Positions 7,654 to 61,634 are shown, counted from the first letter of the stretch. The stretch is DNA of 61,634 nucleotides from Verrucomicrobiota bacterium (GCA_027622665.1 JAQBYT010000020.1:1-61634), one strand, 5' to 3'. The notes: generated by a model not told the origin, from the sequence alone. Made by a program: numbers and translations.

Positions 7654-7965
7654 ATGTCTGAATTTAGTGAAGTAACAGTGGTTCGAGAGGCGAATGTTTA
7701 TTTTGACGGCAAAGTGACAAGTCGAACCGTCAAATTTGAGGACGGAACAAAAAAGACATTGGGCTTCATGCAAGCGGGTGAATATTCATTTGATACCGGT
7801 GTAGCCGAAGTGATGGAAATAATAGGCGGAGAAATGGAAGTGAAACTTCCGGCATCCGACTCGTGGCAAAACTTCAAAACCGGCGAACAGTTTGAAGTTC
7901 CAGAGAACTCGAAGTTTGATCTGATGGTCAAAGAGTTCGCTGACTATTGTTGCTCATATCTTTAA
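7654..7965 (+). CDS. ppnP: pyrimidine/purine nucleoside phosphorylase (DUF1255)
   Basis: [12 protein letters not shown]...KTLGFM..GEYSFDT...E.MEI...DYCCSY matches the PpnP/YaiE family. Confidence 0.88.
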
Positions 7966-8050
7966 AAGCACTCATCTTCAAAATTCACCGTATTCGAAGG
8001 ACCATCGCTCGATGGGAAACCCTTGTTTTGCTAATAAGAACGAAGCGAAA

Positions 8051-9811
8051 ATGAAAAAGCACTTTTCGCAAATAAAAATCCTGCATACCCTCTTTATCGG
8101 TTTATTAACTTGGGGCCTGTTCGGCGACTTGACGGCAGCTAAAAAGCCGAATGTCTTGCTTATCGTTTGTGACGACTTGAACGATTACGTCGAGACGCTA
8201 GGAGGACATCCGCAAGTAAAGACACCGAACATCAAAAAACTTATAGATAGCGGGGTTTCCTTCACCCAAGCGCATTGTAATATTCCCATCTGCAATCCTT
8301 CGCGGGCCAGCTTTGCCACCGGAATTTACCCCCATACCTCTCAAGTGTTCGGGTTCGAGGATTGGGACAAGAACGAGATCCTCAAGAACTCGCGCACCAT
8401 GATGGCTCATTTCTCGGCCAACGGCTACCACACTCTCGGCACTGGAAAAATCATGCACAATCGAGACCGTCAGGAATGGAGCGAGTACGGACACCCTTCC
8501 GATTACGGTCCTTTCCTCTTCGATGGAAAGGACAAGATTCCACACCTTGGAGTCCCCAGCCCGTTCAGGGACGATTTCGGAATTATCGACGGTACCTTTG
8601 GTCCACTCGAAAAAGTCTCCCACAAAAAGTCACCCGCTACGGGAAAACCTTATTCTTGGGTAACCGGGGGGTGGAAGGCCCAACGCGAGCTCAAGTACGA
8701 GTCGGAGGAAAAACGCGACTCGACCGGGGACGAACTCAACGCTCAATGGGCGGTCAAACGGCTGAAGGAACTGGCTGCAGCAAAGAAACGCAAACCCTTC
8801 TTCATGGGCGTGGGCTTCGTTCGTCCGCACACGCCCTTGATCGTCCCTCAAAAATACTTCGACCGCTTTCCCCTAGACTCGATCGAGTTGCCCCTAATCA
8901 AGGAGGGCGACATCGACGACACTTTCAAGCTCACCGTTACATCCAAAGAAGACGATCGAAGCGGAAACCGAGGAACCAAGATGTACGACAGCTTGGTCGC
9001 CTCCTACAAGGGCGACCGGGTCCTTGCCCTAAAGAAATTCATCCAAGCCTACCTCGCCAGCGTTGCCTCGGTGGACGACTTGATCGGTGAAATCCTCGAC
9101 GTCGTGGACGGTTCCTCACTCAATAAGAATACCATAATCGTGTTCACCAGCGACCACGGCTGGGGAATGGGGGAAAAGGACTATTTGTACAAAAACTCCC
9201 TTTGGCAGGAAAGTACCCGCATACCTTTGGTATTACGGGCTCCCGGACTCTCCAAGGTCGGGGAAACCTGTGACCGCCCCGTCTCTCTCGTCGACCTTTA
9301 CCCCACCCTACTGGATCTTTGCGATCTCCCGTCCAACACAATGAAAAACGACAAGGGACGCCCCCTCGACGGGTTCTCCATCAAGCCCTTGCTCAAGAAC
9401 CCCACCATGGGAAAATGGAATGGCCCGGACTCCGCCCTTACCTCTCTTTACAAATGGGCCCAGTATTATGATCCGGCCAAGCAAAACTATTCCTTGCGCT
9501 CAAGCGAATGGCGCTACGTCCGCTATGAAAACGGTAAGGAGGAACTTTATGCCGTAACGAAGGATCCCTACGAATGGGATAATCTCGCGCTTGATCCAAA
9601 CCACGAGAAAACGCTGAAAAAGTATCGAGCCAAACTACTCGCCCGCATTCCCCAAAGCATTCCCGAAAAACCAAAGAGCAACGAACAATGGAAAAACGAT
9701 TACTTCAAGAAGAACCCCAAGGCGGATACGAACAAGGACGGGGATTTGTCTTGGCCCGAACTGAACGCTCACAAGAAATTAATGAATGCCCCGAAGGACG
9801 CCGAATATTAG
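8051..9811 (+). CDS. secreted sulfatase (iduronate/choline sulfatase-like) with C-terminal EF-hand-like repeat
   Basis: KKPNVLLIVCDDL, formylglycine motif CNPSRAS, GKIMH, RPHTP, FTSDHG; DTNKDGDLSWPE EF-hand-like loop. Confidence 0.92.
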   Translation: MKKHFSQIKILHTLFIGLLTWGLFGDLTAAKKPNVLLIVCDDLNDYVETLGGHPQVKTPNIKKLIDSGVSFTQAHCNIPICNPSRASFATGIYPHTSQVFGFEDWDKNEILKNSRTMMAHFSANGYHTLGTGKIMHNRDRQEWSEYGHPSDYGPFLFDGKDKIPHLGVPSPFRDDFGIIDGTFGPLEKVSHKKSPATGKPYSWVTGGWKAQRELKYESEEKRDSTGDELNAQWAVKRLKELAAAKKRKPFFMGVGFVRPHTPLIVPQKYFDRFPLDSIELPLIKEGDIDDTFKLTVTSKEDDRSGNRGTKMYDSLVASYKGDRVLALKKFIQAYLASVASVDDLIGEILDVVDGSSLNKNTIIVFTSDHGWGMGEKDYLYKNSLWQESTRIPLVLRAPGLSKVGETCDRPVSLVDLYPTLLDLCDLPSNTMKNDKGRPLDGFSIKPLLKNPTMGKWNGPDSALTSLYKWAQYYDPAKQNYSLRSSEWRYVRYENGKEELYAVTKDPYEWDNLALDPNHEKTLKKYRAKLLARIPQSIPEKPKSNEQWKNDYFKKNPKADTNKDGDLSWPELNAHKKLMNAPKDAEY

Positions 9812-10028
9812 AAGAAGCACTATTTCAAGAAAAACCCCAAGGCCGATGCCAACAAGGACGGTAAGCTTTCCTGGTCGGAATTTCACGAACACAAGAAAAG
9901 CAAGCCTCGGCAATAGAAAACATTGATTCAGTCGGAAGATTTTGAACTCCGAAAACAATTAAGGGCAAAGCCTAATGTTAAGGTTTGCGGGAGATGCAAG
10001 AGTTGCCATTCGTTTAAAGAAAACTGAA

Positions 10029-12332
10029 ATGAAATTGCTTCAACAGACTCTCTTGGCCCTTCTTCTTTTCGTATCTTCGGCCTATCTCTCCTTGGGCATA
10101 GAGCTAAAGAAAGAAGTTCTTCGGGGAACTAAACAACTAACGCTAGAAGGCGATCTTGCCGAGAGAATGCTTGTTGGCGCCCATCGATTCCTCGATCGCA
10201 AACTGGCCGAGACCTTAGTCCGTCGATCGAAACATTGGGAAAAGGGTTTATCTTCTCCGAAAAAAAAGGAAGGTTTTTTAGACGACAATCGAAAGGAACT
10301 TGCTCGCATTTCAGGAGTAACGGATAAAAGAGTTCCCTTCGAAGCTCCTTCGCTAATGTCCACCACCACAAGGTCGGCCAAGGTAACGACAGGTTCAGGC
10401 TACGAGGTTCTTGCCATCCGCTGGCCAGTTCTAGAGGGAGTTTTCGGGGAAGGCTTGTTACTGCAACCTACAGGGCGAAAGCCTGTGGCAAACGTCCTTG
10501 CAATACCCGACGCCGATCAATCCCCGGAAGATATTGCAGGACTAACGACAAGTATCCCTCCCGCTGGTCAATTTGCGCGAAGATTGGCCGAAAGCGGCTG
10601 CCGGGTCGTCGTACCAGCGCTCGTCGGGCGAAACGTTCGAGTCCAAAGCGAGAGACGCAAGGGCATAAAAATAAGCGACAGGGAATTCCTGCATCGTTCG
10701 GCTTTTCTGATGGGGAGAACCTTGCAGGGATTCGAAATCCAAAAAGCCTTGGCCATGGTTGATTGGTTCGAGAAGGACAAGAGCACGCGGATCGGCCTGA
10801 TCGGTTGGGGCGAAGGAGGTTTGCTGGCCTTGCAGGCAGGGGCACTCGACCCACGCGTCGACGCCGTCTGCGTATCGGGACAATTCGGGCCACGCGAAGA
10901 CATGTGGCGTGAACCACTGGAACGAAACCTGTTCGGATTCCTCAATCATTTCGGAGACGCCGAACTGGCAGGTCTATTGGCCGAGAGAGCTTTGGTGGTG
11001 GAAGCAGCCAAGGGTCCGGAAGTGACCATCGATTCCACCGGCGCGGCTCCGGGCAAGTTAATCACGCCCTCTCTCGCCAAAGTTCGCGATGAGTTTTCCA
11101 GAGCGAAGATTTTGGTAAGTTCAACCAAATCCGCTTTAAGCTTATTTACCAGCGGGGAAGAGGGGAAGGGATCTCCCGGAGAAAGCCAAGCCCTGTTGAA
11201 ATTCTTGCAGTCGCTTTCCCCCGATGGACATTTAAGCAAGCGGGACAAGACCCAAAAAACGGCAACCACCCTACCCGACTCGAAAGCTCGCGAGAAACGA
11301 TCCTTCACCGAAATCGCATCTTACGTTCAAGAACTGGTGGAACAATCTCACCTTGTGCGAACGAGCGATTTTCAGCCCAGCCTCTCGTCACTCGACGCCT
11401 ACGCCAAGAGCACGGTTTCCCATCGTCGACGTTTCGAGGAGGAAGTCATTGGACGTTTCGAAGAGGATTTCCTCCCTCTCTCTCCTCGTTCCCGAAAAAT
11501 ATACGACAAGAAGAAATGGACGGGCCACGAAGTCGTTCTCGACGTGTACCCGGAACTCTTCGCCTATGGCGTCCTCCTCGTGCCGAAAAACATTCAGCCC
11601 GGCGAGCGGCGTCCCGTGGTGGTATGCCAGCATGGTCTGGAAGGACGCCCAAAAGACGTGATCGAGGGCGACCACCGAGCCTATCACGATTTCGCCGCCA
11701 AGCTCTGCGAAAAAGGCTACGTCGTATTCGCGCCCCAGAATCCGTACCTGATGGGAGACAAGTTTCGTTCCCTCCAAAGGAAGGCCAACCCGTTGGGAAA
11801 AACTCTCTTCTCCTTAATCGTGGCCCAGCATCGACAGATCGTACGATGGTTGGGCGAACTCCCCTTCACCGATCCCAAGAGCATCGCCTTCTACGGATTG
11901 TCCTACGGAGGTAAAACCGCCATGCGCGTTCCCGCTCTCGTGGAAGGATATTGTCTCTCCATTTGTTCGGCCGACTTCAACGACTGGATACGCAAAACCG
12001 GTTCCACGCGCCCCGGTGACGACCGATACAGCTACCCCTTCACGAACGAGTACGAAATCTTCGAGTTCAACTTGGGCCACACCTTCAACTATGCGGAAAT
12101 GGCGGCGCTAATCGCCCCGCGCCCCTTCATGGTCGAACGCGGTCACTTCGACGGTGTGGCCCCCGATGAGTGGGTCGCCGCCGAGTACTCGAAGATTCGC
12201 CGTCTTTACACACGACTCAAGATTTCCGATCGAACCGAAATCGAATGGTTCCTAGGCCCCCACACCATAAACGGCCAAGGCACCTTTCGCTTCCTCGACA
12301 AATGGCTCGATTGGCCGCCAATGGACAAGTAA
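10029..12332 (+). CDS. secreted double alpha/beta-hydrolase (dienelactone hydrolase-like), PVC-type
   Basis: Signal peptide; two hydrolase-like halves (GLIGWGEGG; VVCQHGLEG; FYGLSYGG nucleophile elbow; GPH). Confidence 0.75.
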   Translation: MKLLQQTLLALLLFVSSAYLSLGIELKKEVLRGTKQLTLEGDLAERMLVGAHRFLDRKLAETLVRRSKHWEKGLSSPKKKEGFLDDNRKELARISGVTDKRVPFEAPSLMSTTTRSAKVTTGSGYEVLAIRWPVLEGVFGEGLLLQPTGRKPVANVLAIPDADQSPEDIAGLTTSIPPAGQFARRLAESGCRVVVPALVGRNVRVQSERRKGIKISDREFLHRSAFLMGRTLQGFEIQKALAMVDWFEKDKSTRIGLIGWGEGGLLALQAGALDPRVDAVCVSGQFGPREDMWREPLERNLFGFLNHFGDAELAGLLAERALVVEAAKGPEVTIDSTGAAPGKLITPSLAKVRDEFSRAKILVSSTKSALSLFTSGEEGKGSPGESQALLKFLQSLSPDGHLSKRDKTQKTATTLPDSKAREKRSFTEIASYVQELVEQSHLVRTSDFQPSLSSLDAYAKSTVSHRRRFEEEVIGRFEEDFLPLSPRSRKIYDKKKWTGHEVVLDVYPELFAYGVLLVPKNIQPGERRPVVVCQHGLEGRPKDVIEGDHRAYHDFAAKLCEKGYVVFAPQNPYLMGDKFRSLQRKANPLGKTLFSLIVAQHRQIVRWLGELPFTDPKSIAFYGLSYGGKTAMRVPALVEGYCLSICSADFNDWIRKTGSTRPGDDRYSYPFTNEYEIFEFNLGHTFNYAEMAALIAPRPFMVERGHFDGVAPDEWVAAEYSKIRRLYTRLKISDRTEIEWFLGPHTINGQGTFRFLDKWLDWPPMDK

Positions 12333-14157: not shown

Positions 14158-15531
14158 ATGCAAAATTGGTTGAACAAGGCTTTTATATGCTGCTTGTCGA
14201 TGTACGCGTTGGCTTGTTTGGGACGAGCAAAAGCCGACAAACAAGACAACGCAAATTGGCCTTCGTTTCGCGGTGTTCATGCTGCGGGGATAAGCGAAGG
14301 ACCTGGCTTGCCGAAGAAGTTTGATGGCCGAACGAGCGAAGGATTGATCTTCAAAGTCGAGATCCCGGGCTTGGCCCATTCGAGCCCGATCGTGTGGGGC
14401 AAAACGTTGTTTCTGACAACAGCAGTAAGCAGAGAAGCCGGAGCTTCCTTCAACCCGGGTTTGTACGGTTCGGGTGAGGCGTCCAAGGATCGAACCGTGC
14501 ACGAGTGGCTGATCATGTGTTACGACAAGCGCACGGGAAAACTGCTCTGGAAAAAAACCGCGACGAAGGGACGACCGACAGACAAACGCCACGTAAAGGC
14601 GACCTACGCCAACTCGACGCCGGCAACGGACGGCAAGCACGTTGTGGCTTTTTTTGGTTCCGAGGGATTGTTCGCCTACACGGTGGAGGGTGATTTCTTA
14701 TGGAAGAAGGACTTGGGACGTCTAGACGTGGGAGCCTACGACCTTCCCAGCTACGAATGGGGTTCCGCCAGTTCGCCTGTAATTCATGAAGGGAAAGTCA
14801 TCGTCCAATGCGACACGCAGGGTGAATCGTTTCTCACCGCGCTGGACGTCCGCACAGGGCGAACTCTCTGGAAAACCCCTAGGGACGAGTTGCCTTCCTG
14901 GGGCACGCCAACGGTGGTGCCGGGCAAGAAGCGAACGCAGGTGGTAGCAAACGGTTCGAACTTTATCCGTGGGTATGAATTCGAAACCGGGAAAGAACTT
15001 TGGAGATTGGGTGGCAGTTCGAAAATCACAGCCCCCACGCCCGTCTTCGAGGCAGGACTCATCGTAGTGGCCAGTGGACGAGCTCCGGAACGCCCCATCT
15101 TCGCGATACGAGAGGAGGCTTTGGGGGACCTTACGCTAAACCCGGGCAAAACCAAGAACGAGTTCGTGGCATGGAGTCACGTAAAGCGCGGACCTTACAT
15201 GCCGACGCCGCTTATTTATAGAGAAAAGGTATACCTCCTCCACAACGGCGGCATTTTCGCATGCCACGACCTGAGAAGCGGCCACGAATTAAACCGAAGT
15301 AGAATCCCGCATAAGGCATTTGGATTCAGTGCTTCGCCCGTGGCAACGAACGGAAAGATTTATCTTTCAGGCGAAGATGGACTCGTGTTCGAAATGAAGG
15401 CGGGAGACGAGCCGATACTGCTTGCTGTTCACGAAATGGGCGAACCATTATTGGCTTCTCCGGCTCTTTCGGAAGGCGTGATGTACCTACGAGGACAGAA
15501 GCATTTGTTCGCAGTGGGAAAGCATAAGTAG
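14158..15531 (+). CDS. PQQ-binding-like beta-propeller protein (BamB-like repeats)
   Basis: Signal peptide, NWPSFRG, HSSPIVWG, repeated D..TGK.LW and SPA motifs. Confidence 0.88.
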   Translation: MQNWLNKAFICCLSMYALACLGRAKADKQDNANWPSFRGVHAAGISEGPGLPKKFDGRTSEGLIFKVEIPGLAHSSPIVWGKTLFLTTAVSREAGASFNPGLYGSGEASKDRTVHEWLIMCYDKRTGKLLWKKTATKGRPTDKRHVKATYANSTPATDGKHVVAFFGSEGLFAYTVEGDFLWKKDLGRLDVGAYDLPSYEWGSASSPVIHEGKVIVQCDTQGESFLTALDVRTGRTLWKTPRDELPSWGTPTVVPGKKRTQVVANGSNFIRGYEFETGKELWRLGGSSKITAPTPVFEAGLIVVASGRAPERPIFAIREEALGDLTLNPGKTKNEFVAWSHVKRGPYMPTPLIYREKVYLLHNGGIFACHDLRSGHELNRSRIPHKAFGFSASPVATNGKIYLSGEDGLVFEMKAGDEPILLAVHEMGEPLLASPALSEGVMYLRGQKHLFAVGKHK

Positions 15532-15602
15532 GGAACGGGAATTACTCTTTTTTAGTGGTTCTCGATTGCGAAACAATGCATTGCAGGCATTTTCTCTAGG
15601 AA

Positions 15603-18600
15603 ATGCTTAGATGGCGCCCAAGGTTTTCCCGAGCTCGGAGATTCGCACTGCTTGCAACGATTTCTTGTGCAGGTGTTTCGCTCCAAGGCATGGATGGATT
15701 ACGGATACTTAAGGAAAATTGCTTTCGGTGTCATGGGGAAGACAAGCGAAAGGGCGGATTGGTACTAACCTCACGTGAATTGGCGCTCAAAGGCGGCGAC
15801 GAGGGCAAGGTAATAGATCTCGAAAAACCCGAGGAAAGCCGAATTTTGAAACTTATCCTCGAAAATGCCGACCCACATATGCCGCCAAAGAAGCAATTAA
15901 CGGCAAAAGAAATCCAACAAGTTACCGAGTGGCTATCCAATGGAGCAAAATGGGACGCGGAAATATTGGCGGAATTACCGGAAAGGAAAGTGGAAAAGTG
16001 GCGGGCGTTGCCGAAGGGGTTTCTTCCGGTGGGAGCGTTGGCGACTTCGCCGGACGGAACGAAATTGGCGGTGGGTCGCGGCAAAGCCGTCGAGCTGTTC
16101 GACTTATCGGAAAAGGATACCAACGGCTCGGGAGTATGGAAAGGACATCAAGATGAGGTACGTTCCTTGGCATGGAACCCTACCGGCAAGCTTTTGGCGT
16201 CCGGAGGATTTGGCCAAGTTCTCGTGCGGGAGACAAAGCTCGGTAAGCTGATTCAAAAAATTGACGACGGTTTGTCCGGCAGAATCACAAGCCTGACCTT
16301 TGCGGGGAAGAACGGCGAATGGTTGGTTGTCGCGGACGGCGAGCCGACAGTGTCGGGTCGCTTGGTGATTTTCAATACAAAGACTTGGGAGCGAACTGAG
16401 ACGATTCGAGCTCATAGCGATTCCATTTACGGCCTTTCCACTAGCCCCGACGGAAAACTGGTGGCAACTGCAAGCGCGGACAAGTTGGCGAAACTGTGGA
16501 AGAGTGGTTCCTGGAAGTCTACAGGAAGCTTGGAAGGACATACCGAATACGTAATGGCAGCGGCTTTCTCTCCGGATGGGGAACGTATTGCAACGGCGGG
16601 AGCGGATGCCTCCATCAAGGCTTGGAAGGTGAAGACGCTAAAGGAGTTCAGTACTTTTTCCGGGAGGCAAGCAAAGTTGCCCAAAACGGATTTGTTATGG
16701 AAACTCAATCCCACAAAGGAAAAGCCGGATAAGGACGATGATTGGATCATCGCCGTGGGAGCGGATGGAACGCCAAGAGTGTTCACTGATTTGGTCGAGC
16801 ATGAGGGAGCCCAAACCTCGACCGGAGCCAAGGAACGAGCGTGGACGAATAACGAAGTCGCGCATACTGCAGTAGCTTTTTCGGAATCGAACAAACAAGT
16901 GATCACAGGCGACGTAAAAGGCGTGATCACCGTTTGGGATAAAAACGGAAAAAGCCTAAGGCAGTTGAAACCTGAACCAACGGACAACAATGCGACCGCC
17001 GAAGGTGGCCTGATTAGCTTCCGCAACGATGTCTTGCCTATACTTTCTCGTTCCGGATGCGCGGGGGGTAGTTGTCATGCAAAAGCGGGCGGCCGAAACG
17101 GTTTTCAGCTTTCGATTTTCTCTTTTGACCCCAAGAGCGACCATCGTGAAATCGTGTGGGATTCCAGGAGTCGAAGAGTGATGCCGGCGGCTCCGGAGGA
17201 AAGCCTGTTGCTTCGGAAACCGACGCAGGCAATCGATCACGAAGGAGGAAAGCGCTTCGAAAAGAACTCGGCATTCTACAAAGTGCTACGGGACTGGATT
17301 GCGCAAGGCGCCCCCTACTCCGTCCCGGGTGAACCCGAGCTCGATTTAATCGCAGCAACTCCGCCAACGGGGCGTTACAAAAGGGGGCAGAAGCTTCGAC
17401 TTAAAGTAACCGCTCGCTATTCCGACGAATCCGAAAGAAGCGTCACCCACCTCGCCGAGTACCAATCGAACGATGAAGGGATGGCGATCGTTGACGAGGA
17501 TGGTGTCGTCACTTTGGGCCAACAACCGGGAGAAGGGGTGGTGATGGTCCGCTATCTGGATGAAGTGGCAATTGTCCGCCTTACGATACCCGTAGACAAA
17601 CTGCTTCCAAAAGATGCATACGACGGCTTGGCGGTCGGCAACGAAATCGACCGTCTCGTTTATTCAAGGCACAAGGAAATGGGGTTGCTCGTTTCCGAAA
17701 TCTGCACCGACTCCGAATTCATTCGGCGGGCCTCGCTCGACACGGTGGGCAAGTTGCCAAAGGGTACGACCGTTCGCAAGTTTCTAGCCGACGAGTCTCC
17801 CGACAAACGCCAAAAGCTGGTCGATTCGTTGTTAACCGATTCCGACTGGGCCGACTACTGGGCGATCAAGTTCGGGGATCTGCTTCGCCCAAACATACAA
17901 CGGGTGGGTGTTAAGCCCGTCTACCTAATGGATCGCTGGATTCGCAGGCGCTTTCGCGAAAACGTACCGTACGACGACTTTGTTCATGAGTTGTTGACGG
18001 CCGAGGGCAGTAGCCATGAATACGGGCCAATCGCACTCTATCGCCACAAGCGAGAACCCGCCGATACGGGAGCCTTCGTAAGTCGCATCTTTTTAGGCGT
18101 TCGATTGGAGTGTGCGAAGTGCCATCACCATCCGAATGAAAAATGGAGCCAAGACGATTACTACCAAATGGCGGCTTTCTTTGGTTCAATGAAAAGGAAG
18201 GGACAAGGTATTTCAGCCCCGATCTCGGGCGAACCCGAGTATTGGTGGTTCCAACCCGGAGGAGAAGTAAAGCATCCTGTATCGGGAGAGAAAATGGTAT
18301 GTAAAGCGCCGGACGGGCCCGTTGCCGAAATCCCCGAAGACCTCGACCCACGCAAAGCCTTGCTCGACTGGATGCTGACCGCCGAAAACCCTTTCTTTGC
18401 CCAAGCCGCTACAAACCGTATCTGGGCAGAGTTCTTCGGTTTTGGAATCGTCCATCCGGTGGATGACTTCCGAGCCTCGAATCCACCATCCAACGGTCCG
18501 CTGTTGGCATGGTTGGCCAAGGATTTCATCGCTCACGATTACGATCTCAAGCACCTCATGCGACGCATACTGAATTCCCGTGTCTATCAGGCATCCTCAA

Positions 18601-54596: not shown

Positions 54597-57197
54597 TCAT
54601 TTGCCGACAAATATCTCGCTTGCGACCAATTCGTGGATGAGAGAACGCAGTCCTCCTCCCTTGGATTTGACTCTATTGAGAATACCTTCGTGTACTTTCC
54701 GGTCGGCAAACATCGGAGCCCGACCGATCGCATAGGTCTGCAACTGCCTAAGCAAGTTAAGAGTAAGCCCATCTCCATCCTTTGAAGCCAGAAACTGGAA
54801 ATGATTGATTCCTGCAAATTCTCGGCCATCCGGCAAAACACCAGAAGCATCGACAACCGGACCTAGCAGAAAGGATAGAGAGATGAAAGGATCGATTGTC
54901 CCACGCTCAGGCTTGTCTCCCTCCCCCACGGTACGGTAGCGATTCCGTTGGCGACCAATGACGTCAAAGGATTCCAGAGCAAAGCCGGGAGGATCCATCT
55001 TGGCGTGGCAACCTGCGCATGCCGCATGGTTGCGGTGCAGGTCCAGCTGCTCTCGGATAGTGGTCGCTCCACTGATGTCCGGCTCGATAGCAGGCACGTT
55101 AGCCGGTGGAGGCGGGATCGTATTGCCCAGCAACCGATCCATTACGAACGCCCCTCTTGGCACGGGTGAGGTGGTCGTCCCGTTTGCAGTTATCTTGAGG
55201 ATCGAGGCTTGGGTAAGAAAAGGTCCCCGGGGATGATCGGGAGGCAACGAGACTCTTCTGACCTGGGGACCACTCACTCCCTCGATTTCATAGTGAACCG
55301 CCAACTTCTCGTTGATCATGGCGAAATCCGAGCGAACCAAATGCCCAGCCCCCAAATCCTCGTCGAGCATTTCGCGAAAAAAGGAACGCGTCTCAGACAC
55401 CATAGAGTCCTGCAGGTAAGGATTGAACTCCGGATACAGTTTCCGGTCCGGGTCGTTTTTAGCGATTTCCTTGAGACGAAGCCACTGGTCTAGAAAATCG
55501 TTCACGAATCGATCGGATTTCGGATCTTTCAGCATGCGTTCGACCTGCACTTTCAGCACCTCTGGATCATCAAGTTTTCCAGACGCCGCCAGCTCCTTGT
55601 CGGGAAGGGAATTCCAAAGAAAATAAGAAAGTCGATTGGCCCGCTGCACCAGATCCAACTCGCCCTTCTCCTCAAGATGGAAAAGAAAATCGGGTGAGCA
55701 CAGAGCCGCCCGGTAAACCCACCGCATGGCGAACTCGAACGATTCGTTGGCATCCAGTCTCTCTCTGACTCCCTCAAGGTAAAGGGCACGTTCTTCCTCA
55801 GAGACCTTTCGCCGGAAGGCTCGGGGCAAAAAGTCCGCAAGCAACCGCCCGGCGTCCTCGATTGGTCTTTCGGAAAAAACGGTCCACAGTCCCGGCTCCG
55901 TTTGCCTCCTGTTCTGCCCCGCCCCCAGTTGACGAATCTTCTTTCTCAAAGGCGGACGGACGATCGGGTTCTCATCCTTGAGGAACTCTCGGATCGGCAA
56001 GTTGCCGAAAAGTCTCTTGTGCGAAAGCGGAGGCCATTCCTCGTGAAAAGGCCCCTCCACCTCCAGCCAATCGACCGTGATGCCCGGACCCGTAAAGGCC
56101 ATCGCCCTGCCTTTTCGGTTGTAATTGGCTGTCGGGGCAAGGGAGGCGGCATTGAAACCGATCAGCTCATTGTGGTTAAGCCAAACCTTCAATTCATGCT
56201 GCTTGGGGGCAAGCGAGGGAGCGTCATAGTATCCGAGCACGTAACTGGGGTGGCCCCCTCCCCTCCCGTCGCCCGTCAACCGGACGACCGACAAGCGGGC
56301 CGCTTCGGTGCCTCGGGCGGGAAGAACTTTACCCTTGTCCCACTGAAAAGCCCACAGGGAGGTTCTCACTCGGTAGATTCCAGGATAGACCGTTACGTGC
56401 TCCATGAAATAAGGACTGACGGACTCGTCCTCGTGTCGGAACAAGCCGACCGAGCTTCCCGATTGAAACGATCCGTAAGCCTCGTGAGCCCCTTGGCTCA
56501 TATGGTTAAAATGTCCGGCGGGCGGAAAATCCGGATCGGGTTTCATGTCCTTTAGCAACACACCGTCGCCATTCATGATGATATGGGCAACGAACCCCCC
56601 CCGGTTGGCCAGGGAAATCCTTCGTTTTGCCACAACGGGTGCGACCGGTCGAGTGGCAATGGCCAAGTCGAGGGCATGATCCGCTGCCTCCATGTACTTG
56701 GCCAAGTTTACGTGAGAGAGGTCGAGGGCTGCGCTTTGCTTGTCGAATCCATGGACTGATCCATCCTCCGGAAGAAGTTCCTTCAAGGCGATCCCCGGCA
56801 TATCGAACAAATCGCGTAACGAGTATTCGTATTCCGTCCTCGTCAATCTCCGCAGGCGAGTACGAGCCAAGCCTCGGTATTTCTCGGCCTCCGACTCGAG
56901 AATGATTTCCGACAGGGATCCGAGCGCTTTTTTCTTTTCCGCTCCGCTCGGTCGATCCCGCTTAGGAGGCGGCATCTCTCCTCTCTCGATCCGGTCATAG
57001 GCGTACAGCCACTTGGCGAAAGTTTCCTCCGCCCCCAGGTCACGGGAAAGGGAGAGCATGTCCAAGCCTCCCTTCTTCGATTCCCCATCATGGCAATCAT
57101 AGCAATGCTTCTCCAAAAAATCGTCAGGCCAATGCTCCCTCGCCAACAAGGGAAGGCCCATGCCAAGGGCCAGCAGGTAAAGCAAGGGGACTCTCAT
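54597..57197 (-). CDS. DUF1592/1588/1587/1585/1595 cytochrome c-type protein (PVC)
   Basis: CYDCH, LRRLTRTEY, RAFRR, SPDFLF, RLSYFLW, TSPVPRG, CAGCHAKMDPPGFALE. Confidence 0.9.
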   Translation of the reverse strand: MRVPLLYLLALGMGLPLLAREHWPDDFLEKHCYDCHDGESKKGGLDMLSLSRDLGAEETFAKWLYAYDRIERGEMPPPKRDRPSGAEKKKALGSLSEIILESEAEKYRGLARTRLRRLTRTEYEYSLRDLFDMPGIALKELLPEDGSVHGFDKQSAALDLSHVNLAKYMEAADHALDLAIATRPVAPVVAKRRISLANRGGFVAHIIMNGDGVLLKDMKPDPDFPPAGHFNHMSQGAHEAYGSFQSGSSVGLFRHEDESVSPYFMEHVTVYPGIYRVRTSLWAFQWDKGKVLPARGTEAARLSVVRLTGDGRGGGHPSYVLGYYDAPSLAPKQHELKVWLNHNELIGFNAASLAPTANYNRKGRAMAFTGPGITVDWLEVEGPFHEEWPPLSHKRLFGNLPIREFLKDENPIVRPPLRKKIRQLGAGQNRRQTEPGLWTVFSERPIEDAGRLLADFLPRAFRRKVSEEERALYLEGVRERLDANESFEFAMRWVYRAALCSPDFLFHLEEKGELDLVQRANRLSYFLWNSLPDKELAASGKLDDPEVLKVQVERMLKDPKSDRFVNDFLDQWLRLKEIAKNDPDRKLYPEFNPYLQDSMVSETRSFFREMLDEDLGAGHLVRSDFAMINEKLAVHYEIEGVSGPQVRRVSLPPDHPRGPFLTQASILKITANGTTTSPVPRGAFVMDRLLGNTIPPPPANVPAIEPDISGATTIREQLDLHRNHAACAGCHAKMDPPGFALESFDVIGRQRNRYRTVGEGDKPERGTIDPFISLSFLLGPVVDASGVLPDGREFAGINHFQFLASKDGDGLTLNLLRQLQTYAIGRAPMFADRKVHEGILNRVKSKGGGLRSLIHELVASEIFVGK

Positions 57198-57201
57198 GGT
57201 C

Positions 57202-58071
57202 TCAGGCCAAATCCAGCCCGCGCATCAACCCCGTCGAGGTCGAGAACTTATCCTTGCGGATGCCCATGCGATGCAGCATGGAGAGGTACAGGTTGGTCAG
57301 GGGATAATTGTTCTTATCATCGAAGACGAGATGCTGCCCATGCTTAAATCCTCCGCCGGCCAGCAATACAGGTAAATTGTAGTTGGAGTGGGAATTCGCG
57401 CTACCCATGCAGGTTCCGTAAAGTACCATGGTGCGATCAAGCAGGTTGTCTTCCTTCTCGCCGCTTTCCGACAAGGCGGACAGGAAGCCGTTCAAGGCCT
57501 CGAATTGGCCCGTCTCATGGTTCTTCAACTCAGCCAAGGTTTCCGGCCGGTTTCCGTGGTGCGTGATGTTATGGATGACGGTCGTATCGATGAACAGGGA
57601 AACAACCCGGGTCGAATCGGTCTCTAAGGCCAGACGAATCATATCGAACATGGTTCGCGAACGCGAGACGAAGGCCAGTCGGTCCTTGTTCTCATCCGGA
57701 ATCTTCGTATCCACCTTGGGCTTGGGTTCGTATTCCCATTGCTCGGAGGCATGCATTCTCTTTTCCAGTTCCCTCACAGAAGTGAAATACTGGTCCATCC
57801 GGTCGCGGTCCTCACTCGAGAGGCTGCGGTTTAACTTCTTCGCCCGCTCGCTGAGAAAATCCATCGTGCTCCGACCTTGCCTCAACGCTTCGACTTTGGC
57901 CTCGATCTCGCTCGGTTTGCCTTGAAGGAAAAGATTCTCGTAGAGCTTCCGGGGGCTCTGGTCCGAGGGAACCGCCGCCCCGCTCCTGGTATAACTCAAG
58001 GTCGCGTTCTCATTGGTTACCGCCAAGCTCAGGGAGGGAAAGCGAGTGGCGGAACCGATTTCCTCGGCCGC
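57202..58071 (-). CDS. DUF1552 protein, 5'-truncated at the junction
   Basis: Frame reads AAEEIGSATRFPSLSL... from 58071; D.TRV, HNITHHG, LLDRTMVLYG, ANSH...LPVLLAGG. The N-terminal part of the family is missing. Confidence 0.85.
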   Translation of the reverse strand, partial: AAEEIGSATRFPSLSLAVTNENATLSYTRSGAAVPSDQSPRKLYENLFLQGKPSEIEAKVEALRQGRSTMDFLSERAKKLNRSLSSEDRDRMDQYFTSVRELEKRMHASEQWEYEPKPKVDTKIPDENKDRLAFVSRSRTMFDMIRLALETDSTRVVSLFIDTTVIHNITHHGNRPETLAELKNHETGQFEALNGFLSALSESGEKEDNLLDRTMVLYGTCMGSANSHSNYNLPVLLAGGGFKHGQHLVFDDKNNYPLTNLYLSMLHRMGIRKDKFSTSTGLMRGLDLA

Positions 58072-58634
58072 TCAAATAAATATTTGTTAGGTGAATATTC
58101 CTTATAGTACTCTCTAAGTAATAATAGAATGTTTTCTGATAGTGGTAGATTTCTGTCTTTATAATTTTTAGCCCCCCTTACGGTTATACTCATCCGTTCA
58201 GAATCAATATCTATAATCTCCAAGCCTACGACTTCACTAATACGCAACCCAGCAGAATACATTAATGAAATAATGCATTTGTGTTTTATATTTGACAAAC
58301 CATTTATCAACCTCTTAACTTCATTTTTAGAAAGGACTGAAGGTAATTTCTTTTCTCTTCTGCTTGGGATTAGGTATTGAATATTTATAGTTCTATTTAA
58401 AACTTCTTTATAATATAGTTTTAGGGACATTACCATTTGTTTCTGATATGAAAAAGAAATCTTTTTATGATGAATAAGATTGTATACGTATTCATACAAA
58501 TCTTGTTCTGAAACCTTATTTAATGGCTTTTTAAAATAACCTTTTGCTAAACTCACAAAAGATGAATATGTTTTTATGGTGTTAGGACTATAGCGTTTAA
58601 CCTCAAGTATCTTAACGAAATCAGCAACTGACAT
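58071..58634 (-). CDS. tyrosine recombinase (integron-integrase-like, no IntI insertion), 3'-truncated
   Basis: N-terminal SAM-like domain (RYSPNTIKTY), KKLPSVLS..EV, box I YSAGLRISE, AKNYKDR, YLFE. Sequence after YLFE is the unrelated GC-rich segment, so HxxR and the catalytic Tyr are absent. Confidence 0.88.
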
Positions 58635-58667
58635 TTTTAGTGTTTTTTAGTGATTTATTTGCTTTTA

Positions 58668-58675
58668 CAAACATA
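58668..58675 (-). promoter_or_regulatory. Bacteroidota-type -7 promoter element for the integrase
   Basis: TATGTTTG on the minus strand matches TAnnTTTG, 33 nt upstream of the integrase ATG. Confidence 0.5.
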
Positions 58676-58739
58676 ACCAAATAAAATCAATTGGTTATCT
58701 TTTGAATTTTGTATTATTGCACATAACCAATTGTTAGCT
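58671..58739 (+). other. attI-like primary recombination site
   Basis: TAAC-CAATT-GTTA core ending in GTTAGCT (58733-58739), with further ATAACCAA copies at 58673 (direct) and 58691-58698 (inverted). Lies between the divergent integrase and the first cassette. Confidence 0.7.
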
Positions 58740-58776
58740 ACAAGAATAAGAAACCATTAACCTAAATAAAAATGAT

Positions 58777-59268
58777 ATGATTTTTCAAAAAGTAAGAGTG
58801 CTTTTTATCTCAATTATTCTATTACAAGCCTCATTAGCCTATTCGCAAGAATCATATGAAGATATTTTAGGAAGAACCTATGTGCCTGCCAATCAAGAAT
58901 TGTATGAAACGATTGTATCATTGGATAAAAAATTATTTGACGCTTACAATTCCTGTGATATGGATACACAAGCCGCTCTTTATTCGGAAGATTTAGAGTT
59001 TTTTCATGACGAAGGAGGACTATCTACCTCACAAGAAAAACTTTTAATAGCCCTTAAAAATAATATTTGCGAAAAGGTTACAAGAACCTTGATTGAGGGT
59101 AGTATAGAGGTTTACCCTATAAAAGATTACGGAGCTGTTGAAATAGGGTATCATGCCTTTAATGACAAAAAAACACCAGAAAATATATCTAAAGGAAGTA
59201 GATTTATTATGATTTGGAAAAAAACGGATGAAAATTGGACTGTGACAAGAGTCATTAGTCTTCATTAA
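58777..59268 (+). CDS. cassette 1: secreted NTF2-like/DUF4440 protein
   Basis: Signal peptide; LD..LFDAYN.CD, DLEFFHDEGGL, IEVYPI..YGAVEIG.H.F, W.VTRVISLH. Confidence 0.85.
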   Translation: MIFQKVRVLFISIILLQASLAYSQESYEDILGRTYVPANQELYETIVSLDKKLFDAYNSCDMDTQAALYSEDLEFFHDEGGLSTSQEKLLIALKNNICEKVTRTLIEGSIEVYPIKDYGAVEIGYHAFNDKKTPENISKGSRFIMIWKKTDENWTVTRVISLH

Positions 59269-59284
59269 AATCCGAAACTCCAGC

Positions 59285-59413
59285 AGCTAACACGGTGTAT
59301 AAAACATAGCTATTATAGGCTTTCCGAAATGTTTTAGATATTTACAAAGTACGCCAAATCCGAAAAGTTAGTGTCTTTTTATACGCTACGTTTCATACAC
59401 AAGACCGTTACCT
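59285..59413 (+). repeat. attC-like palindromic cassette site 1 (129 bp)
   Basis: AGCTAAC (59285-91) ... GTGTATAAAACATAGC (59295-310) pairs with GCTACGTTTCATACAC (59385-400) ... GTTACCT (59407-13). Confidence 0.85.
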
Positions 59414-59456
59414 GCAAGCGTAACGAACGACAAAAAAATGAAAAACTATACATATA

Positions 59457-60803
59457 ATGACAAAAACAATTTTCAAAACTATTGCTTTAATGGGGCTATT
59501 AAATTCAACAACATTAAAAGCACAAATCAATCCGACAAATAATTTCATAGGGGTAGATGTCAGCACATTTCCTCAAAACGCAAGTTTTGATTATGACTCT
59601 TGCTTTGCTCTTGGAGCAAATTTAGGAATGGGTAGCATGGGACTTTTTCAGAATTGGACAGCCATTGAAACGGCACCTAATACTTTTAATCTAACTATCT
59701 TCGATATAGCAGATTATTATTACCCTTTGCACAATATGCCTATTGATTTAACACTTACCCCAATACATACTAACAATTTAGAAGTGCCGTCAGACCTGAC
59801 AACAACAGCATTCAATAATCCTATTTTAATAAATCGTTTCAAAACACTTTTGGACAGTGTTAAAGCTCACATACCAAATGTTACACTTTCTTCTTTGGTA
59901 ATTGGTTCGGAACACGATGTGTATATGGGGACAAATGCAACGTTATGGTCGCAATACACAACATTTTATAATTCTGTTTCTACTTATGCAAAAACACTTT
60001 GGCCAGGTTTAAAAGTAGCGACTGAATTAACATTTGACGGAATCACTACCTATAACTCATATGCTCAAACATTGAATACAAACAGCGATTACATTGGCGT
60101 ATCCTACTATCCCATAAATTCTAATTTTACTGTCAAGCCTGTTTCAACAATCCCAATTGACTTTGGCACACTTGTAGCTTTATATCCTCTCAAACCATTA
60201 TACTTTTATCAATATGGTTATCCTTCAAGTCCAACTTGTAACAGTTCTGAAACGCAACAAGCACAGTTTATTACACAAACATTTACAACTTGGGACACTT
60301 ATGCTTCTAATGTCAAAAAGATTGATTTTACTTGGCTTCACGATTTAGATACTGCGGCAGTAAATTTTTATGGAACATACTATGGTATTACCGATACCAT
60401 ATTTTTGGAATTTTTACATACATTGGGACTTCGAACTTGGAATGGAAATGGTGTGGATAAGCAAGCATTTGTTGAGTTAGAATGTCAGGCAAAACAAAGA
60501 GGATACAACAATTTAAACATCAATTGCACAACAGGAATTACAGACCAAAGTAACAACGACAATAATCTATTTATTGTATTTCCAAATCCTGTTCAAAACA
60601 AATTGAATATTGAAATGTCATTTGACATGATAAATGCGGAAATTAAAATTTATAATCAGTTAGGACAAATCGAAAAAACCATTTCAAATATTAGTAGCAG
60701 AAACATAAGCATAGAAACATTTGACTCTTCAAACGGTGTATATTTTATAGTATTGCAAAATGGGGACAGACAGGTAAACGGAAAATTTATTATAAACAAA
60801 TGA
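59457..60803 (+). CDS. cassette 2: secreted glycoside-hydrolase-like protein with T9SS type A sorting domain
   Basis: Signal peptide ending KAQ; IGSE, DYIGVSYYP, QYGYPS barrel-like motifs; C-terminal VFPNPV..KLNI...IYNQLGQ...NGVYFI......KFII. Confidence 0.85.
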   Translation: MTKTIFKTIALMGLLNSTTLKAQINPTNNFIGVDVSTFPQNASFDYDSCFALGANLGMGSMGLFQNWTAIETAPNTFNLTIFDIADYYYPLHNMPIDLTLTPIHTNNLEVPSDLTTTAFNNPILINRFKTLLDSVKAHIPNVTLSSLVIGSEHDVYMGTNATLWSQYTTFYNSVSTYAKTLWPGLKVATELTFDGITTYNSYAQTLNTNSDYIGVSYYPINSNFTVKPVSTIPIDFGTLVALYPLKPLYFYQYGYPSSPTCNSSETQQAQFITQTFTTWDTYASNVKKIDFTWLHDLDTAAVNFYGTYYGITDTIFLEFLHTLGLRTWNGNGVDKQAFVELECQAKQRGYNNLNINCTTGITDQSNNDNNLFIVFPNPVQNKLNIEMSFDMINAEIKIYNQLGQIEKTISNISSRNISIETFDSSNGVYFIVLQNGDRQVNGKFIINK

Positions 60804-60822
60804 CGGCAGACAGAGCGCCAGC

Positions 60823-61000
60823 AGGTAACATGGGTTTTGTGAATATGCTGGTTTTGTGCAAGCTGCAACTTTATTTTTTCAGCGGTATAAATTTATATTT
60901 TAAAAGTTGCAATAAAGTTCAGTACATTTAATTCACGTTTTCGGTTAAGACAGTTTAGTGCTATTAATTCCAGCACATCACAAAGCCCCAAACGTTATGC
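60823..61000 (+). repeat. attC-like palindromic cassette site 2 (178 bp)
   Basis: AGGTAAC (60823-29) ... GGGTTTTGTGAATATGCTGG (60832-51) pairs with CCAGCACATCACAAAGCCC (60970-88) ... GTTATGC (60994-61000). Confidence 0.85.
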
Positions 61001-61027
61001 CTCATTGTGAAAGGACAAACCAGAAAT

Positions 61028-61634
61028 ATGAAAACATCTCTGACAATTATATTACTCTTAGTTTTTCTGACGAACAACGCCATAGCTCAAGTTGGTTTGA
61101 CTAAGAAGGAAAACCCATTAAATGACGACTCGTATCTTCACCCCATAGACGCAATTACACCCTACACCCTAAAAAAAGGAGAATGGATTTATGCACAATC
61201 TATTCAAACACTACCGTTCCCCAGTTGGGCATTTTATGGTATAACTGACAGATTGACTGCACAGATAGATTTGTTACCGTGGCTTTACGGTGCATTTTCT
61301 GACTTAAAAAAACCAATCCCAAGTTTGAACTTAAGGTATAGATTTAATGAACAACAAGGGATTATACCAACAATTGGCATTGAAGCAATGTTTGTGCATT
61401 TTTGGGACACACTCCAAAGATTTGAAACCCCCACTCTGACTGTTTGGGAAAACGGCTCTTACTTTCATCTGAAACCATCATTTGGATATAATTTCAAAGA
61501 CAAATATTACATTAATCTATCAGCTGGACTAGATTATATTGGAGAACTTATTTTGCAAAACAACGATTCGTTGAATTTTCAATCCGAAACATTTCAAAAA
61601 AGTTGGAATCCAAATTTTTCAATAGGGTTCGATT
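61028..61634 (+). CDS. cassette 3: secreted/outer-membrane protein, runs off window end
   Basis: Not in the ORF track. ATG 61028 gives MKTSLTIIILLVFLTNNAIAQVGL...TPYTLKKGEW...FYGITDRLT..., open to the end, with a signal peptide and beta-strand-like pattern. Confidence 0.8.
   Translation, partial: MKTSLTIILLLVFLTNNAIAQVGLTKKENPLNDDSYLHPIDAITPYTLKKGEWIYAQSIQTLPFPSWAFYGITDRLTAQIDLLPWLYGAFSDLKKPIPSLNLRYRFNEQQGIIPTIGIEAMFVHFWDTLQRFETPTLTVWENGSYFHLKPSFGYNFKDKYYINLSAGLDYIGELILQNNDSLNFQSETFQKSWNPNFSIGFD

Follow-up and report, generated by a model that had tools for sequence, protein, structure and literature searches.

The window analysed here, 61,634 nucleotides long, is the entire contig C5 of a Verrucomicrobiota genome. 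Towards its end, as the original prediction had noticed, a tyrosine recombinase gene starting at 58634 on the minus strand diverges from three co-oriented and unrelated genes (58777-59268, 59457-60803 and 61028 to >61634). The long palindromes reported between these genes are also there: both fold as long terminal stems and, counted from TAAC to GTT, measure 122 and 171 nt. The features are as follows.

57202..58071, minus strand: host DUF1552 gene, of Verrucomicrobiota type, without its 5' part (Pfam PF07586); context, outside the system
58071..58072, no strand: blunt junction from host DNA (~54% GC) to Flavobacteriales DNA (26-38% GC), with loose ends at 58071 and 58072
58072..58634, minus strand: tyrosine recombinase gene, first 187-188 of 273 codons (PF00589 and PF13495)
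58668..58675, minus strand: TATGTTTG, a candidate -7 promoter box for the recombinase gene, which overlaps the attI repeat in the most distal position
58672..58741, plus strand: attI-like docking site, core TAAC(58724)-CAATT-GTT(58733-35), from the divergence of relatives and contig branching
58733..59406, plus strand: cassette 1, 674 bp, gene 58777-59268 (163 aa, DUF4440/NTF2-like), from Pfam and GTT boundaries
59283..59415, plus strand: attC-like site 1, TAAC 59288 to GTT 59407-09, 122 nt, from fold and end comparison
59407..60993, plus strand: cassette 2, 1587 bp, gene 59457-60803 (448 aa), from Pfam and GTT boundaries
60821..61002, plus strand: attC-like site 2, TAAC 60826 to GTT 60994-96, 171 nt, from fold and end comparison
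60994..61634, plus strand: cassette 3, incomplete at the contig end, its gene starting with ATG at 61028 and matching no Pfam family

The N-terminus of the cassette 1 protein resembles, by eye, a signal peptide, and the protein belongs to a cluster of 26 members that includes one from Gaetbulibacter. At its tail, the cassette 2 protein carries the T9SS type A sorting domain that had been predicted; the domain passes its cut-off and is the sole match to TIGR04183 in the host genome. The resemblance of this protein to glycoside hydrolases (GH53/GH10 look-alikes) is a lead only. Cassette 3 has look-alikes mostly in unnamed Bacteroidota clusters. It cannot be extended in this assembly because the window is the whole contig, and none of the eight loci with homologues of it (67-75% identity) is an intact self-complementary cassette, an observation that counts against the explanation developed below.

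The DNA had been assigned to Bacteroidota. This stands for the array segment, which is Flavobacteriales DNA with a T9SS tail, but not for the genome, which is Verrucomicrobiota at ~52% GC and in whose relatives the recombinase was found in 0 of 40 (E<=1e-40). A close relative of a protein neighbouring the segment is likewise labelled Verrucomicrobiota. The junction between 58071 and 58072 has no microhomology and truncates both flanking genes: the PF07586 match of the DUF1552 gene covers profile positions 118-304 only, and in run X6 this gene runs on past 58071 with different letters. The segment was probably joined to the Verrucomicrobiota contig as a chimera, by a chimeric molecule and a coverage-guided path. 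That Flavobacteriales DNA truly entered a Verrucomicrobiota chromosome, by an illegitimate insertion of very recent date, is possible for this copy, if somewhat doubtful. Such an event would fit the 42.7-kb host contig of run X1 that extends 30 nt over the junction, so that the junction words are present in reads, as well as the host-like depth of cassettes 1 and 3 in X1 and an intact continuation of the host gene that is absent from the X1 matches listed and was not found in the genome. Yet the join is blunt, breaks two genes and sits at a contig end, both genes are intact and separate in X6, depth in X2 is 5 for the host and 9 for cassettes 1 and 3, the insertion is carried by none of the 40 host relatives, and no difference is listed between the segment and the contigs of X1 that have 155-fold and 140-fold depth. 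X1 may be the source sample, and the cassette order in the window may result from mosaic assembly. Other AT-rich contig ends of the host genome have no hairpin site and hold, by look, mostly glycosylation-type genes. Runs with shares of 0.18-0.19 were discarded as habitat evidence.

The recombinase of the window has its core-binding domain, R131 and K156, and is cut at 58072 after about residue 188, without H220, R223, H246 and Y255 (numbering of P0001, a 273-aa relative that is 97% identical). This copy is therefore catalytically dead, and its truncation means that the question of the IntI insertion cannot be read from the window itself. The full-length continuation was found in runs X1, X2 and X6, and all six residues, the catalytic R-K-H-R-H/W-Y set, are conserved in full-length relatives. 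That the recombinase is without the IntI insertion holds in these relatives, although the window copy ends too early: their alignment leaves a gap of ~40 residues against 2A3V, with 59 residues where 34 insertion-bearing proteins (211 aligned) have 100-103 over the same span. The enzyme also falls outside canonical IntI, as had been anticipated: the FastTree tree (106/210 rows) separates an IntI group with support 100 from a mostly-Bacteroidota group of 60 rows with support 95; the tree is unrooted, has no clade test and does not settle how the two groups relate. P0001 stays below the TIGR02249 cut-off (195 < 265), fails those of TIGR02224 and TIGR02225 and passes the XerA-type NF040815 (242.9 > 220). 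Its predicted model has the highest TM-score against 2A3V (0.79-0.80), and the best PDB sequence matches of the recombinase are XerA, XerC and XerD structures (4A8E, 5HXY, 1A0P), which it resembles in length and fold too. Unlike XerC/XerD, whose cut-offs P0001 fails, the family occurs at variable cassette arrays and on plasmids; unlike the Xer resolvases acting at dif, it is not core housekeeping, being found beside arrays and in 206 of 401 Flavobacteriaceae genomes (E<=1e-60). Two Flavobacteriaceae genomes have a second match at E<=1e-30, one of them a separate 322-aa paralogue with 34% identity. In three close relatives, uvrC comes next after the recombinase. A phage origin of this copy was rejected, as viral contigs (14 loci) give near-full-length matches at 26-35% identity only and annotated phages (7 records) at most 36%. 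A link to IS91 was discarded as well, with no transposase ORF adjoining the close relatives. Among plasmids, P0371 gave no match at 1e-80.

The candidate promoter box, called with a -7 consensus that we take to apply here, lies at -41/-42 and is kept in 5 of 6 close relatives and in 3 of 39 across the family. Inside hairpin sites the -7 box is not enriched (18 on the top and 21 on the bottom strand of 264, against 14 +/- 3 in shuffled sequences). The Bacteroidetes LexA box motifs of PMC8565304, searched as exact GGA-N5-TCC or CTAA-N5-TTAG, which diverged forms would escape, were found upstream of none of 39 recombinases, which again counts against the explanation below; in integrons, SOS control of the integrase is common but not universal.

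Each complete cassette starts and ends with complementary sequences, in agreement with the original prediction: GTTAGCTAC (58733) and GCAGCTAAC (59283-91) match at 8 of 9 positions in cassette 1, GTTACCTGC (59407) and GCAGGTAAC (60821-29) at 9 of 9 in cassette 2. The further claim that the ends of each palindrome, as it sits in the array, match only at TAAC/GTTA is right for site 2 (4/9) and wrong for site 1 (8/9), so that cassette 1 alone does not discriminate. Site 1 has a 15-bp arm without bulge, whose positions 10 and 15 are A·C oppositions, equivalent to T·G on the bottom strand, and in both sites the right spacer exceeds the left by 3 nt. A strand-neutral detector gave 193 matches in 705 kb of related loci, none in five shuffles of those loci and none in 261 kb of IntI loci; its single match in the 4.5-Mb host genome is site 1 of the window, and it missed site 2. 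Rfam returned two chance matches only (E 0.86 and 3.4), so the hairpin sites are not a catalogued RNA motif, and blastn of site 1 against plasmids gave no match.

Contigs of runs X1, X2 and X6 switch to other cassettes exactly at the window's GTTs. Five other continuations start at 58735-58738, at the GTT of the docking site, and identity to five close relatives stops at 58735-58746, with other DNA beyond. Cassette 2 has different neighbours at both ends: the attI arm is joined straight to it in X2, another attC precedes it elsewhere in the same run, and other cassettes follow site 2 in X1 and X2. Depths in X1 are 155 for the recombinase with attI and 10.8, 140 and 12 for cassettes 1-3. The docking site has upstream repeats at 58672-80 and 58691-98. 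A crossover at G|TT had been proposed; what stands is an exchange within the shared GTT, whose exact base is not placeable.

Arrays of such palindromes also adjoin the homologues of the recombinase, as expected by the original prediction. Among 40 survey loci chosen from the best recombinase matches, with a length and offset filter fixed after data inspection, 33 of the 39 from Flavobacteriaceae have 264 sites, and in 25 of 31 a sequence complementary to the end of the first cassette occurs no more than 450 nt from the recombinase. Six of the 39 have no site and 6 of the 31 no exact docking match, both counting against the explanation below. Sites gather on one side and strand of the recombinase, at densities of 3.4 and 7.5 per 10 kb compared with 0.05-0.63 elsewhere, in arrays of up to at least 19 sites headed by this family in two layouts, divergent and co-oriented. 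A co-oriented ORF was found in 152 of 179 cassettes, and the proteins are diverse (163 in 148 families). The signal appeared only once array-side DNA was included; when 79 distant loci were first scanned with a permissive detector, the output was mostly noise. With the detection used here, related recombinases of other phyla showed no such arrays, another observation on the contrary side. One might object that ordinary genes are separated here by terminators or REP-like repeats, which would be the palindromes, and that the end matches arise by chance, given that AT-rich intergenic DNA folds readily and that the in-array ends of site 1 match as well as its own. We consider this extremely improbable, and indeed refuted. 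Cassettes match their own ends at 6 of 6 positions beyond the core in 179 of 195 cases (mean 5.74), whereas pairing of in-array ends has a mean of 2.36 and 2000 shuffles give 2.19 +/- 0.10 with a maximum of 2.53; shuffled loci yield no site; and contigs branch exactly at GTTs.

The locus shares with integrons (class 1 and the Vibrio cholerae chromosomal one; VchIntIA, PDB 2A3V) a recombinase beside an AAC-N5-GTT docking site, promoter-less single-gene cassettes with self-complementary ends, hairpin sites bounded by AAC and GTT, a bottom-strand bias, divergent and co-oriented layouts, and chromosomal and plasmid copies. It differs from them in its recombinase, which has no IntI insertion, scores below TIGR02249, lies outside the IntI clade and has no Bacteroidetes LexA box upstream. 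Canonical attC sites have an extrahelical conserved G in L'' and a T 6-8 nt further on the R''-L'' arm, and the insertion is needed for IntI activity (PMC2727003). That our recombinase is without this segment counts against the explanation below. The sites, too, are unlike those of integrons, with no extrahelical base on the R''-L'' arm and bulges, if any, on the other, a spacer asymmetry of 2-4 nt, a near-invariant T·G pair and length classes of their own (near 60-70, 124-127 and 188-191 nt). No bulge was found within 16 aligned arm positions in 167 of 264 sites; among those listed, left-arm bulges are single cases only, whereas 86 fall at two right-arm positions. Arm mismatches are A·C or C·A in 559 cases against 12 G·T or T·G, and A·C occupies position 15 in 192 of the 193 sites given by the detector without strand preference. 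The registers of this invariant A at 15 and of the canonical extrahelical T differ.

The same platform and enzyme could instead recombine double-stranded DNA with two strand exchanges, the hairpins being paired binding sites or cruciforms. An enzyme of Xer length that passes the XerA-type model, inverted repeats adjoining the GTT in long-form docking sites and the missing canonical extrahelical G would all suit such a reaction. However, partner sites have only AAC/GTT in common, with heterologous spacers, arm positions vary in compensatory fashion (at position 6, G-C 92, C-G 84, A-T 78), nearly all mismatches are of types that pair on the bottom strand, and a Riemerella cassette integrated after natural transformation (PMC13148043). 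We regard the double-stranded route as unlikely.

Our literature search found no description of this Bacteroidota cassette system. In the IntegronFinder 2.0 table, each of the 29 Flavobacteriaceae rows covered, of 106 matching and counted irrespective of arrays of this type in those genomes, reads 0/0/0, with no IntI, integron or CALIN; for Bacteroidetes proper, IntegronFinder 2.0 names one complete integron. CALINs and the 21 attC-adjacent recombinases without intI_Cterm (PMC4889954) are similar in being cassette arrays without a recognised IntI. They differ in having been found by the canonical attC model, with recombinases judged non-IntI, whereas here one specific recombinase family heads the arrays; supplementary file 12 of that work holds no Flavobacteriia element, only four Salinibacter In0 rows.

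Natural transformation delivers single strands. In Riemerella anatipestifer, aph(3')-IVb, and also lnu(H) and blaRATA, are captured independently of homology, and integration is site-specific and follows natural transformation (PMC13148043). The integrated aph(3')-IVb unit (27 bp + gene + 140 bp; PMC13148043) is 956 bp, an exact GTT-to-GTT period, and corresponds to the base to one cassette of our family; its 3' hairpin, 126 nt long with offset 3 and A·C at 15, conforms to the pattern of the family. The study notes attC-like folding without naming a recombinase, docking site or array family (PMC13148043). Two plasmids have 7905 bp in common at 99.99%, ending at the attI GTT, and an erm(F) cassette is common to a marine plasmid and the plasmid of a poultry pathogen. 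Plasmids L261 and L263 were rejected as a before-and-after pair, as L261 matches, past its two cassettes, only the 9-nt start of L263's first cassette. The arrays of the Riemerella plasmid come without a recombinase of this family, no Riemerella occurs among the recombinase matches and cluster members listed, and no mobile element lies within 100 kb of the insertion site (PMC13148043); these three observations count against our explanation. The first of them, together with recombinase relatives that adjoin no detected array, would suit cassettes moved in trans by a canonical IntI, an HUH/IS91-type transposase or the host Xer, the adjacent recombinase being a passenger. This is very unlikely in our view, given that in 25 of 31 loci, and in two orientations, the docking site from which the array starts is at most 450 nt away from the recombinase, that 261 kb of IntI loci hold none of these sites and that the 29 Flavobacteriaceae rows have no IntI.

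We return to the reading in which the resident enzyme acts on folded single strands. Modular cassettes, GTT exchange points, recombinase-tied docking sites and the bottom-strand bias of hairpins are established at the level of sequence, where the self-complementary cassette ends rebuild a longer stem in the circle only. An integron-like platform with a non-IntI recombinase and atypical sites, as originally proposed, is upheld by the GTT branching, these ends, the docking sites (25/31), the absent insertion, the position outside IntI and the lack of integrons and CALINs in the 29 rows covered of the IntegronFinder 2.0 table. The segment is likely the head of such a Bacteroidota platform, by the following steps taken together. 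It would derive from a chromosome of marine Flavobacteriales, on which uvrC is the usual neighbour of the intact gene. The resident 273-aa recombinase, the presumed catalyst, would excise cassettes as circles between two hairpin sites and insert them next to its own promoter, at the docking site, with a crossover within the shared GTT. By analogy with IntI, the folded bottom strand would be used, one strand would be exchanged and replication would resolve the product. As strand determinants, extrahelical bases may be replaced by the spacer asymmetry of 2-4 nt together with the conserved T·G pairs.

The window's own copy carries little weight, being truncated and probably mis-joined to its genome. 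On balance, we lean towards a joint reading in which Bacteroidota capture cassettes mainly by a second integron lineage, whose recombinases never had the IntI insertion or have lost it (the enzyme occurs in about half of the Flavobacteriaceae genomes sampled). This lineage would read folded bottom strands by T·G pairs and spacer asymmetry, not extrahelical bases, it would be the homology-free route of Riemerella to resistance genes, and plasmids of Acinetobacter and Klebsiella would carry fragments of it as the 'xerD' genes before tet(X3) and blaVEB-3. The system offers a concrete candidate mechanism for the unexplained published uptake of resistance genes in Riemerella, a duck pathogen (PMC13148043), and hints that tools for resistance surveillance have a gap. 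Bacteroidota count as almost integron-free; if the inferred mode of action is right, this major phylum possesses a cassette platform that is widespread and has been overlooked. If so, cassette capture does not require the insertion held to define and enable integron integrases, which would make the origin of integrons testable.

The stretch is the whole of contig C5 in a genome of 4.5 Mb (66 contigs, about 52% GC), and around position 58070 its GC content drops from about 54% to 26-38%. The features are these:

Left of 58071: DUF1552 gene, first third missing
Left part of the window, coming after the DUF1552 gene: DUF1592-family gene
58634 to 58072, minus strand: tyrosine recombinase
Right of the recombinase, plus strand: three co-oriented genes (cassettes 1-3)

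The original prediction saw here an integron-like platform with a non-IntI recombinase and atypical sites. After three corrections the observation is real, and for the family as a whole the interpretation stands. On recheck, the coordinates of recombinase, genes and cassettes were correct, as was the complementarity of the cassette ends (8/9 in cassette 1, 9/9 in cassette 2). The further claim, that palindrome ends as they sit in the array match at TAAC/GTTA only, is true of site 2 (4/9) and false for site 1 (8/9). Rfam has no family for the window's hairpins.

Relatives of the recombinase (E<=1e-60) occur in 206 of 401 Flavobacteriaceae genomes evenly sampled from the family of genome G001, a Winogradskyella going by its title. 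We picked 40 regions around good hits and dropped one with a broken gene; the remaining 39 loci are kin rather than independent samples. With a site filter fixed after inspection of the data (offset 2-4, three length classes), 33 of the 39 loci showed hairpin sites, 264 in all, lying on one side and one strand of the recombinase. For the 11 short enzymes they are upstream and on the opposite strand, at a density of 3.35 per 10 kb (0.2-0.63 elsewhere); for the 28 longer ones they are downstream and co-oriented, at 7.54 (0.05-0.33 elsewhere). Most family members have 300-390 aa (L224-L243, L217-L223), an N-terminal extension and co-oriented downstream arrays. The extension had no Pfam match in the three long members scanned. 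Layout and length are loosely coupled: L216, with 280 aa, has the co-oriented layout and L025, with 355 aa, the divergent one.

In 179 of 195 adjacent pairs, the 6 nt past the opening GTT are fully complementary to the 6 nt before the cassette's own closing AAC. Cassette ends match at 5.74 positions on average, against 2.36 for in-array pairing and 2.19 +/- 0.10 in 2000 shuffles; that chance produced the pattern seems hardly credible. Such self-complementary ends are the footprint one would expect of circular intermediates. Applied to the DNA beside the recombinase, this rule locates a docking GTT no more than 450 nt from the gene in 25 of 31 loci. These 179 cassettes carry a co-oriented ORF (152), a reversed one (11) or none (16), and their 163 proteins fall into 148 families, four of which are common to both layouts. 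In one array (L204, on G006:C13), a GC-rich element of roughly 165 nt that has AAC...GTT bounds of its own appears four times between 2.9 and 9.7 kb upstream of the recombinase, each copy behind a GTTGTGGCG start; this is apparently an ORF-less cassette. Homologues of the cassette 3 gene (L251-L258, 67-75% identity) lie chiefly in ordinary chromosomal contexts, one of them (L253) comes after a hairpin site and its own end is degenerate; a source, or a domestication, of cassette genes is possible.

Past 58736-58738 the contigs listed show three alternative continuations in sequencing run X1 and a single one each in X2 and X6. In X2 an attI arm of 18 nt with one difference runs straight into cassette 2, a different hairpin end also precedes cassette 2, and a different sequence precedes cassette 3; in both X1 and X2 a different sequence follows cassette 2. 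Five close metagenome loci (L094, L095, L096, L140, L143) follow the window until 58735-58746 and then diverge; in a sixth close locus (L098) the site has decayed. In L094, L096 and L097 the recombinase gene faces uvrC, which places the window-type clade on chromosomes. Two plasmids, from Flagellimonas and Arenibacter, share 7905 bp at 99.99% up to the attI GTT, and carry different cassettes beyond it. These comparisons indicate that cassettes move at the GTTs, with a crossover resolvable to the shared GTT and no finer.

The window's own copy is a dead fragment, probably mis-joined to the contig. Its recombinase ends after about residue 188, with H220, R223, H246 and Y255 beyond the cut. The nearest full-length relative, P0001 (273 aa), is 97% identical and belongs to a cluster with Flavobacteriales and Cryomorphaceae labels. 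The single TIGR04183 match in the whole genome is the T9SS tail of cassette 2, and none of 40 relatives of the host genome has the recombinase at E<=1e-40. One cluster member of the DUF1592-family protein is labelled Verrucomicrobiota. We compared 56500-61634 with four of 24 listed runs. In X1, possibly the source sample, the host contig has a depth of 11 and recombinase plus attI one of 155; cassettes 1-3 stand at 10.8, 140 and 12. The recombinase continues to full length in X1, X2 and X6, and in X6 the host gene also goes on intact past the junction. The 58071|58072 join is blunt, and its probable explanation is a molecule of chimeric origin, extended along an assembly path that coverage guided. 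A real, recent insertion of a foreign segment is a less likely reading: the X1 host contig overruns the junction by 30 nt, so junction molecules do occur in the X1 reads, and neither the X1 continuations listed nor the genome contain the host gene carried on intact. Contig overlaps in X1 bridge the joins between cassettes 1 and 2 and between 2 and 3; since no single listed piece spans the whole array, the cassette order may be a mosaic of strains. Cassette 2 (59407-60996) reaches 140-fold in X1 and 60-fold in X2, and its protein cluster has just two members in the collection compared, suggesting a locally dominant, globally rare cassette.

The recombinase is not IntI, as originally claimed. 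P0001 aligns with VchIntIA in two blocks, with about 40 VchIntIA residues in between, and has 59 residues across the insertion span; among 211 aligned proteins this span is 59-69 in 176 and 100-103 in 34, one being broken. P0001 passes the XerA-type model NF040815 and falls below the TIGR02249, XerC and XerD cut-offs. In a FastTree tree (106 of 210 rows, redundancy cut 58%, L056 excluded, long N-termini trimmed) it joins 60 mostly Bacteroidota rows in a group with support 95, and the IntI group (support 100) stands separate; the tree is unrooted and its deeper branching order lacks resolution. The best matches to the AlphaFold model of P0001 (pLDDT 85.9) are XerA and VchIntIA; the top TM-score, to VchIntIA, may reflect merely the DNA-bound domain arrangement. 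A Bacteroidetes LexA box turned up in none of the 39 regions upstream of recombinases. In the close clade only, the distal attI repeat overlaps a candidate -7 box of the recombinase, and this would permit autorepression. On one metagenome contig (L145) an IntI-clade protein has lost most of the insertion region, either naturally or by assembly error.

The sites differ too. In canonical attC the R''-L'' arm carries extrahelical bases, a G within L'' and, 6-8 nt beyond it, a T, and these sit in integrase pockets (PMC2727003). In contrast, 167 of the 264 family sites are bulge-free over 16 aligned arm positions, the listed bulges are nearly all on the right arm, and the right spacer exceeds the left by 2-4 nt. 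Arm positions covary through compensatory changes. Mismatches pairing as T·G on the bottom strand number 559 against 12 of the reverse, a count that the first detector slightly favoured. A second detector, built to treat both strands alike, picked up 193 sites in 705 kb of related loci, 192 of them with A·C at position 15; it gave a single site in the host genome and none in five shuffles or in 261 kb of IntI loci.

Taken as sequence evidence, these data show modularity, exchange points, the circle footprint and strand bias; the resident recombinase as catalyst and the single-strand route are what we infer. Most likely this enzyme works as IntI does. It would bind duplex DNA at the docking site and folded bottom strands at the hairpin sites, the strand being chosen by spacer asymmetry and T·G pairs; a single strand would be exchanged within GTT and resolution handed to replication. 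Double-stranded recombination by the same enzyme is unlikely.

Integration of one such cassette has been demonstrated in Riemerella anatipestifer. [quoted passage not shown] Its supplement lists NZ_CP073240.1 as a carrier; the donor was another strain, the 140 bp being stated as identical in all isolates. On NZ_CP073240.1 the published limits become 16531-17486, 956 bp, and the distance from opening GTT (16529) to closing GTT (17485) is exactly 956 bp, with ends 9/9 complementary and a hairpin of the family pattern. By these coordinates, the published integration fits one cassette of this family. The plasmid-borne loci are:

NZ_CP073240.1 (L264), 1089-2120, 9974-11027, 14280-18378: resistance cassettes, 4/5 detected sites
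NZ_CP092416.1 (L261), 6911-9819, and NZ_CP022516.1 (L263), 6263-7173: plasmid-borne short-form platform
Acinetobacter plasmids L265, 3534-5670, and L266, 3552-5760; Klebsiella plasmid L267, 3627-5248: 5'-truncated recombinases

In L264, aadS, lnu(I), estT and aph(3')-IVb sit in family cassettes with ends 9/9 self-complementary, the phosphotransferase cassette sharing its 9-nt ends with the window's cassette 2; the ere(D) site lacks self-complementary cassette ends. A recombinase of this family is absent from NZ_CP073240.1, and no Riemerella name appears among the matches and cluster members listed. A different enzyme acting in trans would accommodate such arrays, and leaves the arrangement of sites around the resident gene to be explained; we consider it quite improbable. 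At its attI the Flagellimonas plasmid (L261) holds an erm(F) cassette, gene reversed, and a DHFR-family cassette; the former, its first, matches the Riemerella plasmid erm(F) cassette at 96.9% over 894 bp, from GTT. The recombinases ahead of tet(X3) and blaVEB-3 (L265-L267) are AT-rich family relatives (62-66% and 50-53% against the long forms of Bacteroidota); behind each stand an inverted repeat and a GTT that resemble long-form docking sites. Downstream of tet(X3) stands a left half-site alone, and the tie to the family is partial because these units lack self-complementary ends. An IS110 transposase and a group II intron interrupt the array of a Chryseobacterium plasmid (L262, NZ_CP041688.1, 11890-17480), in which one family site was detected. 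Near-identical members of 279-301 aa (P0371, in the cluster of P0305, and P0399) occur on up to 1000 or more contigs and bear Bacteroidales, Sphingobacterium and Chryseobacterium labels, which makes them candidates for a clade that is mobile among gut bacteria.

We found no description of the system in our searches of PubMed Central open papers and bioRxiv, among them PMC8138268, PMC8565304, PMC13616975, PMC8435808, PMC8618304 and bioRxiv 2024.07.02.601686; subscription journals lie mostly outside this coverage and a published account elsewhere is possible. Cury et al. 2016 (PMC4889954) had 21 recombinases that adjoin attC sites but lack intI_Cterm, and judged them not to be IntI. The IntegronFinder 2.0 paper names one complete integron in Bacteroidetes proper, and its table gives zero in all 29 listed of 106 matching Flavobacteriaceae rows. 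Given the differences in insertion, clade and extrahelical bases, we do not class the system as a member of the integrons, yet it works like one.
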